Both the position numbers and the translations under genes were made by a program. Below are positions 1,147-38,561 of a stretch of 59,161 bases of DNA, piece by piece. The stretch is from a virus. Lineage: Duplodnaviria > Caudoviricetes. Numbering within the stretch: the stretch's first letter is position 1; each line of letters starts with the position of its first letter. Under the pieces are notes generated by a model. That model saw only the letters and a list, made by a program, of their open reading frames with translations. It was not told the DNA's origin and made no database searches. Location of the stretch: IMG/VR virus record IMGVR_UViG_3300030104_002956, positions 1 through 59,161 of that record. The stretch is one strand, 5' to 3'.

Positions 1147-4100
1147 TTAACTTGAACATAAACTTACTTGAACAATTAATCCATTTGCATCTTGTCTTAA
1201 CCAGTATGTATCAACTACTGTTGGGTTTGGATTAACATATAAATAATAACCAGCCGCTGCAGGCACTGTCATAGCAGCATCATTATAAATAGCAGTTGCT
1301 TCAGATGGCACAGCAGCATCTAAATAATAAGTTTGTAACACGCCACTTCCTCCACAAACTATACTTTCTGTAGCGCCAAATGATAAATTAACAGCAGTTG
1401 ATGTTCTATAGTCATATATTAAATACAAGTTAGACACTGGAGTAGTACCAGTATTCGTATAAGTAAAAGAACCTTCAAAAACTCCTGTAGATGTGTTAGA
1501 TATAGTTAAGTTATTACTTGCAGCTGCAGTTAATAAGTTATTAATACCTGTTTGTGTATTAGCATAAGTAGTACTACTTAATAAATGCAATAATCTATTT
1601 CCATTATTAGTATTAAAATCAAACGTATCTGAACCTGTTTTAGCAGACTTAACAGTTATTACAGCGTTAGGCGTTGGGGTAGTTCCTACTGCTACTTGAG
1701 AAGTATATACCTGATACTGAGCAACTCTATGTGTTCCACTACCTGTTCCTGTAGCAACATTTGTAAAAGTCACAGGCTGGTTGATAAGTGGACTAGATAC
1801 AGTTGGTGTTAAACTAGTTGAAACCCATTCATATTGATTATGAATACTAGGAGCTAAACCAGTAAACTCACTATTAATACATATTTGATATACATTAATT
1901 AAACTAGCATCTGGACACTGCGCAGTAATAGAATAGTTAGCAGATGTTCCTATAATAGAAACAGTTATAATAGCAGTGTCAACAGTTGGTTTATCTTTAC
2001 TAAACTGAAAAGTACCAATTCCAGTAACACTTCCAGACGTAGCAGTATTTCCATCGTAAGTAACAGATATATCAATATTACCTGAAGTAACATTATAATC
2101 TATATCGGTTGTTCCCATTGAATTACCTAAATTAACTGTATAAGTAAAACTTGATGTTTGATTATTGAATTCTAGTTCTGATCCACAAGACACTACTTGA
2201 GCGTCAACTGGTAACGTTTTGTTATTACTACTTAAAACATACTCATTCATATATGGATCATAACCCCCTATTTTTTGAGTATTAAAATCTTCTATAAATA
2301 AATCTCTAAAATAAGATCTCATTCCTGCTTGAGATATGACTTCTAATGATTCATTGGAATAAGAACTACCGCTCAACTTTATAACAGCTCCACGTTTGGC
2401 ATCCGTAAAATATTTATCATAACCAAACTCAGCATAACTTTCTGGGTTGTGACTAATGCCATATTCTTCTAATCTAGTTATTTGCTTACCTAATATTGTT
2501 GGTGTAGAAGTAACATCAGATTGACCAGCAGCAGTAGTAAGTAAGTTTTTGTTTACTAAAACATAAGATACTTTATCTTCTTGTAGTACTAATAAATCAT
2601 TTTGTCTTGCTTTAAGAAGTTCAATATTTCCAAAGTCTTCATTTAAGTCTTTGAAATTAAGTATACCTAAATTAAATTCATTAAGTCTATTTAGTTTGGT
2701 CTCATCATTGTATACACCACTATAGGTAATAGATGCATTTCTTCGTTTTTGTTTAAATTCAGAAAGTGCTAAAGTGTAAGTTCTTTCTCCAATGTTTACA
2801 GCATCCTCTTTAAAAGAATCTTGTATTTTACAACTTTCCATACCATTTCCCCAAGCATAACAGTTAAAGAAATTAGTAACTATAATAGCGTCTGCATCAA
2901 CTGTACCTCCCTCAACTGGAGTTGCTGAACCAAAAGCCACACTTAATACAATGGTATTAGCGTCTGGTTTTTCTAATACAGTATGTTCACCATTATATTG
3001 AGGATTGGTTGGAGATAAGTTAGTTTGTTGCACATTAATAATATCGCCAACAGAAAAAGGAGCAGTAGTTAATCCTGTGCCTCCTGTACTAGTGAGTGCT
3101 AAGTTTCCACCATAATAAGTAGATGCCGATAACCCTTGAGAAGATCTATAAGCGTTATTTTGAGCATTATCATAAAAAGTCCAAGTATTTTGGTTTTGAA
3201 CACTACCAGTATGTAAATCGTTAGTTATTTCAAAAACTTGATTTCCTTCATAATATATTTCATCAGCAGCATCTTCTCCATCTGTTTCTAATACAAAAAG
3301 ACCATCAGGTATATTACTTATTTTTACTTGTATAGATACTTTTGAAGTTCCATTAGTTATGTAATTTAACCTAGTCTCAAATCCTGACTTAATTCCAATT
3401 CCTGCAACAGAAGAACCACCATCATCAAAAGTGTTAAAACTAACAATATGCTCTCCATAATTCGAAGCATTTTGAGAAGTTACTATTGGGGCATCATCAT
3501 CAGTAACTGTAATAGCATTATTTAATTTATACCTAAACTTTTCGCCTTCATTCCCACCGTAATCTATTTCATCATTTGCAAAAAAACCACTGTTATTTGT
3601 AAACTGCTGCTGCACCATTTGATTTAAATTATCTTGAAGTGTTGCTCCTGACGAATATTCCTTATCAGCTCTTCTTGTGGTTATTAGATTACTGAATTTA
3701 TTTTTGTTCTCCTTGTTTGAAGTGCTACTAGGTCTATTATCTGGTCTTTCACATCTTATTTTTATAGTGACATTAGTTCCTTCTTTTATGGTAGCACTTG
3801 AAAATGGATTAGTTGATCCAGTAGACAACACACAAACAGCGTCAATACCTCTAAATGGAAGTAAAACATTTTTTTGTTTTTTACCATTTTTTTCATTAAT
3901 TAAACCAGGTTCATTTACTCTGTATTCATTTCCAGGAGAAAACTTAGCATAAGGACCTGGTCCTGGATAAGAGGCAGAGGCAGTGTCAATATTAGGATTA
4001 GTGGTTTTCTCTAAACAAGTAGCCTCTATATAGGAATTTTTAGGCCCATCAATATCTCTTTTTACTGTATATACTTCTCCATCCGATACTTTTTGAGCGG

Positions 4101-33860: not shown

Positions 33861-34012
33861 AGTTTATAAGTTATTCCAACCACTACAAAAAAACCACCAG
33901 TGGCTAAAGCATAGGTATTTGGGTTCATTCCAAGTTGTTGATTGTTCCAAATCATATTGGCTCCAGATGCTGTCATCATACTTAAGCCACCTATTATTGC
34001 TAGTCTTTTCAT
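33857..34012 (-). CDS. 51-aa hydrophobic protein (not in ORF track)
   Basis: MKRLAIIGGLSMMTASGANMIWNNQQLGMNPNTYALATGGFFVVVGITYKL; ATGA overlaps on both sides. Confidence 0.65.
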   Translation of the reverse strand: MKRLAIIGGLSMMTASGANMIWNNQQLGMNPNTYALATGGFFVVVGITYKL

Positions 34013-35598
34013 TTTATTTCTCGTGCCATTGTAATGATGGCGTTAGTACTTAATATGGTTGTTGCTACCGATACTGCATTTTTAAGTGCGTTCTTAGTTA
34101 CTTTAAGTGGGTCTAATATTCCCATCTTGTACATATCTCCAAACATACCTTCCTTTACATCATAACCCATATTGAATTCTGAATTATTTAGCAGCCCTTC
34201 TATTTCTATAATGTCCCCGTCAGAGAGTCCAGCATTTTTCATAATGGTGAAAAAAGGAGCTTTTAAAGAGTCTGCTATGTTTTCTTCTGCTAAAGTCATT
34301 TTACCTTCAGACAATTTATTTGATTCCCTAAATAATGTCACTCCTCCTCCAGGAAGTATGCCTTCGTCTAGTGCTGAACGAACTGCACACACTGCATCAT
34401 CTACCCTATCATACTTTTCTTTCTGCTCAATGTCTGAGTTGCCACCAACATATATTACGCCAATAGCACCGTTTAAGCAAGCTATTCGCTCACTCATAAA
34501 CACAACATCTGGCTTAGACTTGGTATTGTCTTTTTGAACTTTTAACTCTTTTACTCTTTCTTTAATCACCTCTTCATCTCCGTGACCACCTAGCATAATG
34601 GTTTCATCTCTGCTTACCACTACTTTATCTACCTTACCTAAATCTTCCATTCTAATTAAGTTGAGGTCATCACCAGTCTCTTCAGCGAAATACTTACCCC
34701 CAGTTGCTACTGCTATGTCATTCATTAGCTCGTGTCGTTTGTAACCAAACTGTGGCGGCTCAATCTGACACAACTTCAACCCGTTTCTAACTACATTAGC
34801 CGATAGTGTGTTCATCACATTGGTGCTACAAGACGATATGATCAGTAGTTTGTGTCCACCATTAATAATTGGTTTTAGTACGTTCTCAATTTGCAGTACG
34901 TTACTAATAACGTGGTCCGATAATAGTACATAACAATCGTCCAATATGCACTCATCCTTTTTTTGGTTATTCACAAAAGAATTGGCACCCCACCCTCTTT
35001 TTAGTTGAATACCTTTATGAACCTCACTAAACGTTTGGTCATTTTGAGAATTTTCTACCGTAACCACGCCATCAGTACCTACCTCTAAATAAGTATCTGC
35101 TATTATTTTTCCTAGCTCTCTATCGTTGTTTGCCGATATGGTAGCTACATCCAATAATCCTTTTTTGGATAATTTCTTAGTCACTTTCTCTAAGTTTAAA
35201 ATCACTTGATCGCAATGACTATTAATCTCCCTAATGTATTTGTTAGAACTAATGTTATTTTCATCCAGGTGTTTTAACCCTTCTTTTACTATAGATTCAG
35301 CTAAAACAATAGCTGTTGTTGTTCCGTCTCCTGCTACATTCGCAGTGTTTTGAGATGACTCTCTGAGCATTTGAACTGCAAGATTCTCTACTGGATCAAG
35401 TAGCTGAACTGCCTTGGCTACTGTAACGCCATCTTTGGTAACTGTGATTCCGTGGGTGTGAGCTGGTGATTCAATAACGACTGTGTTTCCGCCTGGACCT
35501 AGCGTGCTCTTAACTGCTTCGCTAATTTTTTTGATGCCAGCTTTTAGTTTAGTTCTGGCCTCCTCGTGCAAGACGAGTTCTTTTGGATTGTATGACAT
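34009..35598 (-). CDS. groEL: Chaperonin GroEL
   Basis: TLGPGG, TKDGVTVA, AGDGTTTA, ATISANND, GILPGGG and GILDPLKV motifs. Confidence 0.97.
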   Translation of the reverse strand: MSYNPKELVLHEEARTKLKAGIKKISEAVKSTLGPGGNTVVIESPAHTHGITVTKDGVTVAKAVQLLDPVENLAVQMLRESSQNTANVAGDGTTTAIVLAESIVKEGLKHLDENNISSNKYIREINSHCDQVILNLEKVTKKLSKKGLLDVATISANNDRELGKIIADTYLEVGTDGVVTVENSQNDQTFSEVHKGIQLKRGWGANSFVNNQKKDECILDDCYVLLSDHVISNVLQIENVLKPIINGGHKLLIISSCSTNVMNTLSANVVRNGLKLCQIEPPQFGYKRHELMNDIAVATGGKYFAEETGDDLNLIRMEDLGKVDKVVVSRDETIMLGGHGDEEVIKERVKELKVQKDNTKSKPDVVFMSERIACLNGAIGVIYVGGNSDIEQKEKYDRVDDAVCAVRSALDEGILPGGGVTLFRESNKLSEGKMTLAEENIADSLKAPFFTIMKNAGLSDGDIIEIEGLLNNSEFNMGYDVKEGMFGDMYKMGILDPLKVTKNALKNAVSVATTILSTNAIITMAREIK

Positions 35599-35622: not shown

Positions 35623-35675
35623 TAAATTATTTTAAGTCATACAAATAAACTAATTTTTTTTATTGTTTTGACAAA

Positions 35676-35954
35676 TAACTATTTGATTATCAATAAGTTA
35701 GAAATAATCTGACGGTTTGTTTTTAGTTAACTACCTGATTATCAAGTAGTTTGACGGTTTGACGGTTTTTTCTCCAAAAATCAGCACTATATACTTTCTT
35801 CTTTTTCTTTATTTACTTTTTTATTTTTTTTATACTAAAAATCGTCAAAATCGTCAGCTATTAATAATATATAGTTGATTTACAGTAAGTTAGAGTAAAT
35901 TATATAAAGTAAAAGTTCGTCAGATTTTCGTCATAATTTTGACGATAATCGTCA
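35676..35954. repeat. Iteron/IHF-site array A (putative replication origin)
   Basis: TGACG at 35710, 35752, 35760, 35940; CGTCA at 35843, 35852, 35918, 35929, 35950; T-rich spacer; IHF-consensus WATCAANNNNTTR on both strands within 35676-35700. Confidence 0.65.
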
Positions 35955-35960
35955 TATTTA

Positions 35961-36051
35961 GCCGATCGTTGTTATATCTGGGCTTTAACCATCTTAGCTT
36001 TTCACTAATAACAACATAATACAATCGGCATTTAGACTGGTAACACAGTCA
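35961..36051. ncRNA. Putative structured small RNA (bulged hairpin plus GTAACA hairpin); strand uncertain
   Basis: GCCGAT/ATCGGC and GTTGTTAT/ATAACAAC stems with an 8-nt bulge, and GACTG-GTAACA-CAGTC. Contains the 18-mer shared with the hammerhead loop. Confidence 0.45.
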
Positions 36052-36127: not shown

Positions 36128-36240
36128 TTTTTTTTTGGGGGTGGGGGTGTTGCTGTGGTTGATGCGTCTGTAATTTTTGCCGTTTTGTGGTGGTGGTGGG
36201 TGGGGTTGGTGGTGTTGCTTTGTGGGTGCTTTTGTCATTC
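36128..36240 (+). other. G/T-skewed, G-tract-rich segment (candidate genome end/packaging site)
   Basis: GGGGGTGGGGG and (GGT)n-GGGTGGGG, almost no A, at the divergent strand switch. Confidence 0.4.
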
Positions 36241-36587
36241 TGCGTAAACTTTAGAGCCGTTTATTTATCGTCTTTTGTTGTTCATTCAATAGCTATTTTA
36301 TAAACTAAATAAGACCCTTTTAAGAACTTTAAAACCCTTTAAACATACTTAGAAAGGGAATAAAACCCGCCCGCCATTTAGCCCAAATAAATAAAAATAT
36401 TTTTTTATTCCTGTTTGTTATCTGTTGAAATGGTGTAAAAAGTAATATGTTTTGTTTAAGGTTGCTAAACTTTTTTTCTTCTCTGGAGTTTCTCTGTTAA
36501 TCCAGAATTTTAAAGGTTAAACAGATTTTGTAGTCTCGTTTACTTGTTTTTACTTAGCTGTCGAAAATAATACTAAAAAAATACAAA

Positions 36588-36767
36588 ATGGAAACTTATA
36601 AAGTGGAATTAAATAAAAAAGAATTATCAGAGATTTCAAAACTTTTAAACAAAGAAGTGAAAAACAATCCTGAACTTATGGTTATATTATCTAAACTGAG
36701 TTTAGCATATTATGAGCCGTTAACAAATGAAATAGGGGAGTTTATAACAGATAAATTTAATCTATAA
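36588..36767 (+). CDS. First early hypothetical protein, 59 aa (not in ORF track)
   Basis: METYKVELNKKELSEISKLL...DKFNL with an A-rich leader, followed by a GGGGCT/AGCCCC hairpin at 36780-36797. Confidence 0.65.
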   Translation: METYKVELNKKELSEISKLLNKEVKNNPELMVILSKLSLAYYEPLTNEIGEFITDKFNL

Positions 36768-36812
36768 ACAATTAATCAGGGGGCTTTAATTAGCCCCTCT
36801 TAAAACTAAATT

Positions 36813-37001
36813 ATGATAAGAATTAAAGACAATAAGCAACACGGAATCAAACCGAATATAGCTAATAAGCATAAGAAAGGGGCTAAAATTGTAAGGATTC
36901 AAACAATAATTGATAACCAAATAAAAAGCATTGACACGGCTATATTTAAAGCAGATAGAGCCGAAAAGCAAAGAGACAGAAGAAGAGCCAAAAGAAGATA
37001 A
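36813..37001 (+). CDS. Early basic hypothetical protein
   Basis: 62-aa ORF with an A-rich leader. Confidence 0.6.
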   Translation: MIRIKDNKQHGIKPNIANKHKKGAKIVRIQTIIDNQIKSIDTAIFKADRAEKQRDRRRAKRR

Positions 37002-37051
37002 AAACACATATTTAAACACGTGGAGACCACACGCAAAACGGACACGAAAAG

Positions 37052-37137
37052 AATAGTTTATTGTAAACTGATGAAGCTAACAAGCAGAAACAATATAACA
37101 ACATAATACAATATTAAATTGTCTTTACATAACTATT
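37052..37137 (+). ncRNA. Type I hammerhead ribozyme
   Basis: Stem I TGTAAA(37062-67)/TTTACA(37124-29) plus AATAGTT/AACTATT; core CTGATGA (37068-74); stem II GCT-AACA-AGC; GAAA (37087-90); stem III ACAAT/ATTGT; GTC cleavage triplet 37121-23. Atypical A-A opposition at 10.1/11.1. Confidence 0.8.
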
Positions 37138-37150
37138 AAAAAAAACACAA

Positions 37151-37546
37151 ATGAAATATACTTTAATTTTTACCGATGTTGATTCCAACAGTTTTGAAAT
37201 CGACATCAACACGAACGAACCAAAGATTAATTTAATCGCAGGCACATTATCAAACAAAGTAGTAAAATTTATTACTTTAATGAGAAAATATAACCAAAAA
37301 ATAGGGTTTAAATTTGCTCGAAAATTTGACGTGCAATTTTTAGAGAATAACAAAGAAATAAAATCATTTAACGGAATTTCTTTAAATGGTGAGCAGTTCG
37401 GCGTTAAACTAACCCTTGTAAACAATGAGAAAAGCAAAAGTAAATTTTCTTCTTTTATGGGCGACTTTATCAAAGAATTAGTTTGCACAATGGCAGGGGA
37501 TGAAGAAATTTCAACGGCTGAATTATTAGAAGAATTAGCAAAATAA
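37151..37546 (+). CDS. Early hypothetical protein downstream of the hammerhead
   Basis: 131-aa ORF with an A-rich leader. Confidence 0.75.
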   Translation: MKYTLIFTDVDSNSFEIDINTNEPKINLIAGTLSNKVVKFITLMRKYNQKIGFKFARKFDVQFLENNKEIKSFNGISLNGEQFGVKLTLVNNEKSKSKFSSFMGDFIKELVCTMAGDEEISTAELLEELAK

Positions 37547-37691
37547 AAAGAGTATTGAATAAACAAAAAAATAAAAGGGGAACACAGTCCGAAAACATAT
37601 ATAATAAAATATGATAAACACACATCCATTAAATTTTTGGGGATTTTGACGAAATGAAAGAAAATTTATGAGGACTGAAACAATACTTTTC

Positions 37692-37715
37692 AAGGGGGCA
37701 ATTGCCCCCTTTTTT
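37692..37715 (+). terminator. Rho-independent terminator
   Basis: AAGGGGGC-AATT-GCCCCCTTTTTT. Confidence 0.8.
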
Positions 37716-37727
37716 ATTAATTAAATT

Positions 37728-37870
37728 CGCATAGACGCAAGGTGAAAAGTAAATTTATGGCAATGTGATAAAGTAGCCCAATAAGGGTAAAATTGAAATA
37801 GAGCCTTGTACCTAAACCAAGAATTTAGGAATATGGTTAATTGGGGGTTCGACTCCCCCTCTATGCGCTA
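37728..37870 (+). ncRNA. tRNA-like structured RNA (~140 nt)
   Basis: CGCATAGA(37728-35) pairs with TCTATGCG(37860-67). A perfect T-arm GGGGG-TTCGACT-CCCCC (37843-59) abuts the 3' acceptor strand. No canonical D or anticodon arms. Confidence 0.65.
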
Positions 37871-37892
37871 AAAACAAATAAAACCTAAAAAA

Positions 37893-38264
37893 ATGCTTAA
37901 AAGTAATTCAAATAAATATTTAAATAATATTCAAAGTTATATACTTGATTCAATAAATAGTGAAGGCTACGACATCAAGACAGAAACACCAACCGAAAAA
38001 ATACAGTTTTTATTTGACTGTTTCGAGGTAGAATTTAACTACAAAAACAATCAATTAAGATACCCAAATTTACAGGATCGTTTTGCAAATTGGTTACAGG
38101 GCTTACCCCCTGCAATAGATTTGCCTTATCAAAACTATAAAATTTTACAACTATCTAAAATATTATTAGAGGTATACACTTTGACTGAAAAACAAGAAGA
38201 AACAATTATTAAAAACTATTGGTCATTTATGGCTTATCACATAATTAAACTTAAAAACAAATGA
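37893..38264 (+). CDS. Early hypothetical protein (WLQGLP motif)
   Basis: 123-aa ORF. Confidence 0.75.
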   Translation: MLKSNSNKYLNNIQSYILDSINSEGYDIKTETPTEKIQFLFDCFEVEFNYKNNQLRYPNLQDRFANWLQGLPPAIDLPYQNYKILQLSKILLEVYTLTEKQEETIIKNYWSFMAYHIIKLKNK

Positions 38265-38561
38265 AAGAATATAATTTACTATACAAGAAACTAATAAATA
38301 AAACCATAACTAAACAAGAAGAAAAAAGACTCTTTGAATTAGCTTTTGGATCAGAATTTATGAAATCAAATGATAAAGGAACTTTAAAAGAATATAAATT
38401 ATGAATATTAAAAATAAAATAAACTTTATAAAAAGACACATAAAGCACACTCACAATGAGGTGGATTTTAAAGATTTAATGTCATTCAATGACCAAGAAA
38501 TAAATGAGATTTATAAACAAATAATTGAAGACTCTTTGTAAAACCTATAAAAACAAATACA

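Follow-up and report, generated by a model that had tools for sequence, protein, structure and literature searches.

The window analysed here is an entire IMG/VR virus record of 59,161 bases, 99% complete by estimate. Its terminase is nearest to those of podophages of Flavobacterium, Cellulophaga, Tenacibaculum and Maribacter, and the source is an uncultured marine, Flavobacteriia-type podophage. Leftward genes extend up to the gene for a full-length GroEL-type chaperonin (34009-35598, minus strand; PHROG 5725, E 5e-135; 54-98% identical in relatives), which ends at 35598. Rightward genes start at about 36588 and include several small ORFs followed by genes for a methyltransferase, a primase/helicase and a second helicase. 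On the plus strand, ORF59 and ORF62 are followed by a conserved hairpin, by the element that is the subject of this work (37052-37137) and by a variable next gene. The element, which sits between a 62-aa ORF (36813-37001) and a 131-aa ORF (37151-37546), is part of an accessory cassette that heads the rightward operon. Gene order is the sole basis on which we refer to this region as early; a scan for sigma-70 promoters yielded 12 candidates against 14.6 expected.

The DNA to the left of the cassette contains other conserved features. Iteron-like repeats (35674-35960 and 36136-36222), which comprise three 29-nt copies and several GACGGTTTG or CGTCA units and are followed by a G-rich, T-rich tract, likely represent a replication origin or a genome end; the contig of the relative L005 begins inside the same kind of iteron-like region. 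A second conserved hairpin is located at 35970-36018 in the divergent intergenic region and has counterparts in L002 (1751-1799), L003, L086 and L007 (about 3125-3195). The arms of this hairpin, which flank a conserved CUGGGCUUUAACCAUC…UAGCUU, change from GUUGUUAU/AUAACAAC to AUCGUCAC/GUGACGAU, with four pairs altered on both sides. The hairpin is possibly a structured RNA, and Rfam contains no match that covers it.

Read on the plus strand, the element has all the parts of a type I hammerhead ribozyme. Stem I is an open-ended helix in which the 5' strand (37052-37067), with single-U bulges at 37057 and 37061, forms 14 pairs with the 3' strand (37124-37137), the predicted 5' end of the downstream fragment. 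The core sequence CUGAUGA (C3 U4 G5 A6 U7 G8 A9) is read directly at 37068-37074 and is followed by the stem II hairpin (37075-37086), which opens with the opposition A37075·A37086 (A10.1·A11.1) and consists of 3 bp, GCU/AGC (G37076-C37085, C37077-G37084 and U37078-A37083), capped by the loop AACA (37079-37082). The second part of the core, GAAA (G12 A13 A14 and A15.1; 37087-37090), is invariant in all homologues and leads into the 5-bp stem III hairpin (37090-37122). The first pair of this stem is A15.1-U16.1 (A37090-U37122), followed by C37091-G37121, A37092-U37120, A37093-U37119 and U37094-A37118, and its loop contains an insertion of about 20 nt found in this genome only. The cleavage triplet GUC occupies 37121-37123, with scission predicted after C37123. 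From the predicted cut to the ATG at 37151 there is a 27-nt leader (37124-37150), made up of the 3' strand of stem I (14 nt) and 13 nt of A-rich sequence. The original prediction, which listed CUGAUGA, GAAA, a GUC triplet and three stems in type I order, is borne out base by base, as are its A-A opening of a 3-bp stem II and its 27-nt leader before the ATG at 37151, the latter by the coordinates themselves.

Hammerheads cleave after NUH triplets (where H is not G), so that both GUC and GUU qualify, and leave a 2',3'-cyclic phosphate on one side of the cut and a 5'-OH on the other. Within the class, G10.1-C11.1 is the most highly conserved pair. All 11 invariant hammerhead core bases are present at the site, and the place of G10.1-C11.1 is taken by A37075 opposite A37086, an opposition that is invariant in 9 of 9 homologues. 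Invariant in the homologues are also loop II (AAYA) and the two stem I bulges, U37057 and U37061, the latter located 6 bp from the core.

The insertion in loop III includes an exact 18-nt copy (37095-37112, plus strand) of 36008-36025, a direct repeat that is missing from every relative except the identical contig L077. The copy is flanked by ACAAT microhomology and equals the 3' arm of the hairpin at 35970-36018, so that the ribozyme loop could pair with the 5' arm of that hairpin. The insertion shows that loop III is free to carry extra sequence.

Within the window, the motif is rare but not beyond the reach of chance. The string CTGATGA-N12-GAAA occurs once, against 0.06 expected, and appears at least once in 6 of 100 shuffles. 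A permissive type I descriptor (stem I of at least 5 pairs, stem II of at least 3 with a 10.1/11.1 mismatch allowed, stem III of at least 4, and UH) matches only this site when either strand of the window is scanned; of 300 window sequences shuffled by a first-order Markov model, only 2 contain any match (0.7%). Because a chance of 0.7% per window matters across a scan of many windows, the case rests on comparative evidence. The folding energy is not distinctive (z = -0.75, with 47 of 200 shuffles folding as well). Across sequences, the fold z-scores range from -0.4 to -1.5, the stems being AU-rich and weak, and in two of seven sequences (L082 and L086) the minimum-energy fold is not the hammerhead. 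A search for other compact hammerhead cores in the window, in the C3-G8 or the U3-A8 form, yielded none that is convincing.

Searches with the 131-aa protein identified 2 viral and 12 metagenome contigs, among which 10 contain the full element, 2 contain a part of it and 2 include too little upstream DNA. Two alleles are apparent. Allele A, with the CUGAUGA core, is represented in the window (identical to L077), L079, L082 and L086, and this core is conserved in all 4 distinct allele A sequences. Allele B, with the core UUGAAYAA, is found in L002 (identical to L080), L003 (identical to L083), L078, L084 and, in part, L081. A search with the allele B core pattern returned 7 loci, 4 of them in the family, and added the distant members L114/L123 and L120/L129; the matches L115, L116 and L118 are unrelated to the element family. 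No further genomes emerged from alignment searches with ORF62 and the 131-aa protein in viral contigs. Two other patterns were tried and set aside. The pattern AAGCAGAAACAAT-N(1-30)-ATTGTC matched 68 loci in viral contigs, with the two known relatives as the only homologous ones, and the pattern AAGCYAAYAAGCAGAAAC matched 12 loci, of which 4 are in the family and the rest are coding or belong to an unrelated GC-rich family. The GC-rich viral family L122, L124, L125, L127 and L131 has the sequence CUGAAAAGCUAAYAAGCAGAAAC, with the same stem II and a G8-to-A core; in this family, GAAACCCC pairs with a downstream GGGGGUUUC, which by our reading is not a hammerhead fold.

Base pairing was assessed across 9 distinct homologues, with C3-G8 included among the pairs and L084 omitted, its element being identical to that of L078. 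Over 23 pairs, 99% of the cells are paired, and 7 of the pairs change on both sides with pairing kept (5 in stem I, 1 in stem III, and C3-G8/U3-A8). When the partners are slid by 1-3 columns as a control, pairing falls to 31-51% of the cells and two-sided changes to 0-2 pairs. Seven such pairs are attained in only 2 of 500 shuffles. All cells of stem I are paired in the 9 homologues (100%), 5 of its 14 pairs are compensatory, and the pair adjoining the core is A-U, G-C or U-A. In stem III, 1 of the 5 pairs is compensatory, with A-U replaced by U-A in L123 and L129. In stem II no pair covaries. Its third pair is lost to a C·A mismatch in 3 of 8 relatives, which leaves 2 bp, and is disrupted in 2 of the 9 distinct sequences; the support for this putative stem comes from conservation. 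Length variation among the homologues, from 0 to 23 extra bases, is confined to loop III. RNAalifold, run on its own, predicts the same three-way junction. The covariation derives from about four haplotypes, so that few independent events underlie it.

The C3-G8 tertiary pair is C-G in 4 of the 9 homologues, U-A in the other 5 and mismatched in none. U4, G5, A6, A9, G12-A14, A15.1 and U16.1 are constant in all 9; N7 is U or C; and H17 is C except for a U in L086, making the triplet GUC in 8 of 9 and GUU in 1 of 9. In the alignment, we interpret the allele B core as U3-A8 combined with one base inserted after A6 (A6a), and allele B is probably a slower hammerhead. The core changes fall at tolerated positions, namely, the C3/G8 pair, N7, H17 and the insertion at A6, which supports a real hammerhead. 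Stem I of allele B includes a G·U pair (pair 18/84) that would be C·A on the other strand, indicating that the constraint acts on plus-strand RNA rather than on DNA. Alleles A and B occur as intact haplotypes on recombined flanks, with no mixed haplotype among the 9, and the sister pairs L082_A/L084_B and L079_A/L003_B have 100% support.

None of the Rfam hammerhead models matches at gathering score over the window, at E ≤ 10 at the site within 401 nt, or in the insertion-free relative L079. Models RF00163, RF02275, RF02277 and RF00008, run singly on the genome, report nothing at the site, and RF02276 was covered through the library scans only. The element is not a member of RF00163, RF00008, RF02275, RF02276 or RF02277 as curated. 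It shares with type I hammerheads (RF00163, clan CL00010) the open stem I, CUGAUGA, closed stem II, GAAA, closed stem III and GUC, and differs from RF00163 type I in having A10.1·A11.1 in place of G10.1-C11.1, a 3-bp stem II, AU-rich stems and a score below the Rfam reporting level.

The same design occurs outside this phage family. The pattern CTGATGAAGC-N6-GCAGAAAC, which includes the core and stem II only and leaves stems I and III unconstrained, matched 21 loci in viral contigs (L093-L113), of which 18 are distinct. All 21 form complete hammerheads, 11 of type I and 10 of type III, with the triplets GUC in 11, GUU in 9 and GUA in 1; among flank-shuffled controls, 154 of 2050 (7.5%) pass the same criteria. 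In bacterial genome contigs, the pattern CTGATGAAGC-N6-GCAGAAAC matched 41 loci, mostly coding and without a stem II hairpin. Nine of these pass, 7 with a paired stem II, among them the type I hammerheads of Francisella and Facilibium contigs (L138, L150 and L168); the other 2 look like chance passes. The loci L093-L113, L138, L150 and L168 have a core and stem II of identical design, CUGAUGA-A-GCN-N4-NGC-A-GAAAC. In L138 and L168, stem III (ACAAU…AUUGU) equals that of the element described here, and a 6-bp stem I is shared with it as well. Most of the other A·A hammerheads have GC-rich stems and a GCC/GGC stem II, unlike the AU-rich element in the window. The allele B core is present in none of these other A·A hammerheads. 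On such comparative grounds, the A10.1·A11.1 stem II is a recurrent natural hammerhead subtype that is found in viral and some bacterial contigs.

The ten type III representatives (L093, L095, L099-L101, L103, L104, L106, L111 and L113), all of them viral, lie downstream of their own cleavage sites, unlike the type I element in the window. In several of these, from AT-rich contigs, an ATG follows at about 25-35 nt, and the message would therefore retain the ribozyme at its 5' end. The type I A·A hammerheads in the viral contigs L098 (595-665) and L105 (516-587 and 597-681) are located about 75-150 nt upstream of tRNA genes.

These loci also serve to calibrate the Rfam models. At gathering score, the Rfam library matches 0 of 17 A·A viral hammerheads. 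At E ≤ 10, sub-threshold hammerhead matches appear in 2 of 8 viral A·A loci (20.4 and 17.9 bits) and in 4 of 7 bacterial ones (20.9-32.5 bits), and the Infernal alignments of these sub-threshold loci place A·A at 10.1/11.1, flagged as non-canonical. The Rfam hammerhead models penalise the A·A subtype as a whole. Given that well-formed viral A·A hammerheads escape these models in 17 of 17 cases, the failure of the models to report the element is not diagnostic, and because the subtype falls below every Rfam hammerhead threshold, standard annotation misses such ribozymes.

Twelve A·A type I hammerheads from outside this phage family were used to train a covariance model, R2. Since they had been collected by means of a pattern modelled on the core and stem II of this element, the test is circular for those parts; its independent content is limited to stems I and III and the cleavage site. 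Within these bounds, R2 finds the insertion-free allele A relatives at full length, with 42.4 bits for L082, 36.5 for L079 and 35.7 for L086. In the window, the segment 37063-37099 ranks first at 20.9 bits (E 6e-5, a rough value), ahead of the next match at 12.4 bits; this alignment is partial because the loop III insertion interrupts it. Among the allele B loci, R2 finds 1 of 6, weakly (L129, 11.8 bits, E 0.077).

Hammerheads between phage or prophage genes have been described by Perreault et al. 2011 (PMC3088659), who proposed that they split long transcripts into gene-length mRNAs; like those ribozymes, the element lies between genes of a phage operon. Section 8 of that paper lists natural variants with U3-A8 covariation, an A6a insertion (of low activity) and 2-bp stems II. 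It also lists a natural U10.1-U11.1 mismatch, for which that section states no activity assay; the mismatch implies that the G10.1-C11.1 pair is not absolute in the hammerhead class. The published U3-A8 and A6a variants resemble allele B, whereas the published 10.1/11.1 mismatch is U·U and both alleles here have A·A with a very short stem II. Furthermore, the C3-G8 core and the U3-A8 core with A6a here segregate as alleles of one locus. Our literature search found no printed natural A10.1·A11.1, and the supplementary alignments of Perreault et al. 2011 may contain the A·A form. HHphage, the hammerhead of haloviruses HF1 and HF2 (PMC3088659), is located 13 nt upstream of an early gene, and a mapped transcript 5' end lies at most 3 nt from its cleavage site. 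HHphage differs in its two-base insertion (2a, 2b), its very high Mg requirement and the different domain of its host.

The neighbours of the element differ in how closely they are tied to it. The 62-aa ORF (36813-37001, plus strand), which has a basic, R/K-rich C-terminus (…KQRDRRRAKRR), always precedes the hairpin and the ribozyme, and its homologues, 60-94% identical, are present in all ribozyme-carrying genomes including L123 and L129. Searches for ORF62 in MW202828.1 and in three relatives at a greater distance were negative. Neither Pfam nor PHROGs has a family for ORF59, ORF62 or the 131-aa protein. The hairpin between ORF62 and the ribozyme (37019-37043, plus strand; hairpin proper 37019-37033) consists of CGUG, the loop GAGACCA and CACG, with a AAAACGGAC tail. 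Across 10 homologues, compensatory changes occur at 2 of its 4 pairs, with the loop (GNGNCCA) and the tail conserved. A match of this hairpin in L079 to the Rfam DUF805 RNA (16.6 bits, E 0.58) is probably noise, given that the best match of this model in the window lies elsewhere (14.4 bits) and the model matches 10 of 14 control genomes; a literature search turned up no paper on the 'DUF805 motif'. Possibly the ORF62 protein binds RNA, with the neighbouring hairpin or the ribozyme as its partner.

On the other side, the 131-aa ORF (37151-37546, plus strand; 18 homologues) is a variable companion of the ribozyme. In L123, the ribozyme is followed by a different, 63-aa ORF in place of the 131-aa gene; in L129, it is followed by no nearby gene and by a non-coding stretch homologous to 37547-37700 of the window. 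More distant relatives are without the whole module, and in L005 a 123-aa gene comes directly after the promoter-like region that in the window precedes ORF59. With ORF62 and the hairpin always upstream and the downstream gene variable, the ribozyme is tied to ORF62, not to the 131-aa gene. Neither blastn with 36500-38300 nor tblastn with the 131-aa protein found a match in the GenBank phage collection. Between the 131-aa and 123-aa genes of the window there is a non-coding stretch of about 330 nt (37547-37892) that contains, at 37692-37711, a strong hairpin resembling a terminator. L003, in which 18 nt separate the two genes, lacks this stretch, which may be a small RNA or a promoter module.

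We conclude, with a probability of about 0.78, that 37052-37137 is a genuine type I hammerhead of the recurrent subtype with A10.1·A11.1 and a 3-bp stem II, predicted to cut the early transcript. In the plus-strand transcript, the three-way junction would fold and the RNA would cut itself after C37123. The upstream fragment would then carry ORF62, the hairpin and, at its 3' end, the body of the ribozyme, terminated by a 2',3'-cyclic phosphate, and the downstream fragment would start with a 5'-OH followed by the 14-nt 3' strand of stem I, the A-rich 13-nt leader and the ATG at 37151. Such a cut would uncouple the fates of the upstream and downstream messages.

The explanation that has to be weighed most carefully, although we regard it as unlikely, is a conserved three-way junction that is not catalytic and serves as a binding site for the ORF62 protein or a site for a host RNase, or else is a decayed hammerhead kept for its shape. 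The core of allele B, the commoner allele, departs from the consensus and is conserved in that form even in the distant L123 and L129; R2 recognises it poorly (1 of 6 loci, weakly), and low activity has been published for the A6a insertion (PMC3088659). Stem II is a weak helix that loses a pair in 3 of 8 relatives, and the tight linkage of the element to ORF62 and to a covarying hairpin also favours this reading. The details of the core speak for catalysis, however. The allele A core is an exact hammerhead consensus, the differences between the alleles (C3-G8/U3-A8, N7 and one insertion) are all tolerated by hammerheads, and the remaining core bases are invariant, whereas a constraint on shape only would not preserve 11 unpaired junction bases. 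The same core and stem II, moreover, are embedded in complete hammerheads at 21 of 21 loci elsewhere.

Other readings deny the element any RNA function. A hammerhead look-alike that arose by chance in AT-rich non-coding DNA would fold no better than shuffles and would have no Rfam match, as is the case here, and a false-positive rate of 0.7% per window translates into many chance matches in a very large scan. This reading, which we consider very improbable, is largely refuted by the 7 compensatory pairs and 99% pairing over 9 homologues, and is also at odds with the confinement of length changes to loop III, the invariance of the core bases and the R2 scores of 36-42 bits for the relatives. 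Least probable of all, and close to negligible, is an inverted repeat that functions in DNA, as the operator of a dimeric regulator or as a recombination site, with no RNA involved. Stem I is indeed a 14-16 bp imperfect inverted repeat around a palindromic stem III, in a regulatory-looking region near the iteron-like repeats, but the G·U pair of allele B reads as a mismatched C·A on the opposite strand and hence is not symmetric in DNA, the single-base bulges and unpaired junction bases are invariant, and the concerted change of C3 and G8 is meaningless for a DNA palindrome.

For the hammerhead reading, the identity claimed in the original prediction, a type I variant hammerhead, is supported by covariation among homologues, which had been named there as a test and is found in 7 of 23 pairs, by the 21 of 21 A·A loci and by R2. 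The Infernal search with Rfam models proposed at the same time was run, and no hammerhead model reports the site. The suggested role for the 131-aa gene is doubtful: the element seems to serve for general processing behind ORF62, not for regulation of that gene. A more speculative extension, to which we give little credence, is that the ORF62 protein, the hairpin and the hammerhead form one regulated module, in which the recombining alleles, a 'fast' consensus and a 'slow' U3-A8/A6a form, would tune the splitting of the early message and cleavage could be controlled by ORF62, whose arginine-rich tail would bind either the hairpin or the ribozyme.

Hammerheads in phage operons have been known since 2011, and the element itself is no surprise. 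The A·A subtype to which it is assigned is missed by standard search models and hence by standard annotation. The locus is a natural matched pair, C3-G8 versus U3-A8 with A6a on near-identical scaffolds, that would provide a test of the trade-off between speed and function among core variants in vivo.
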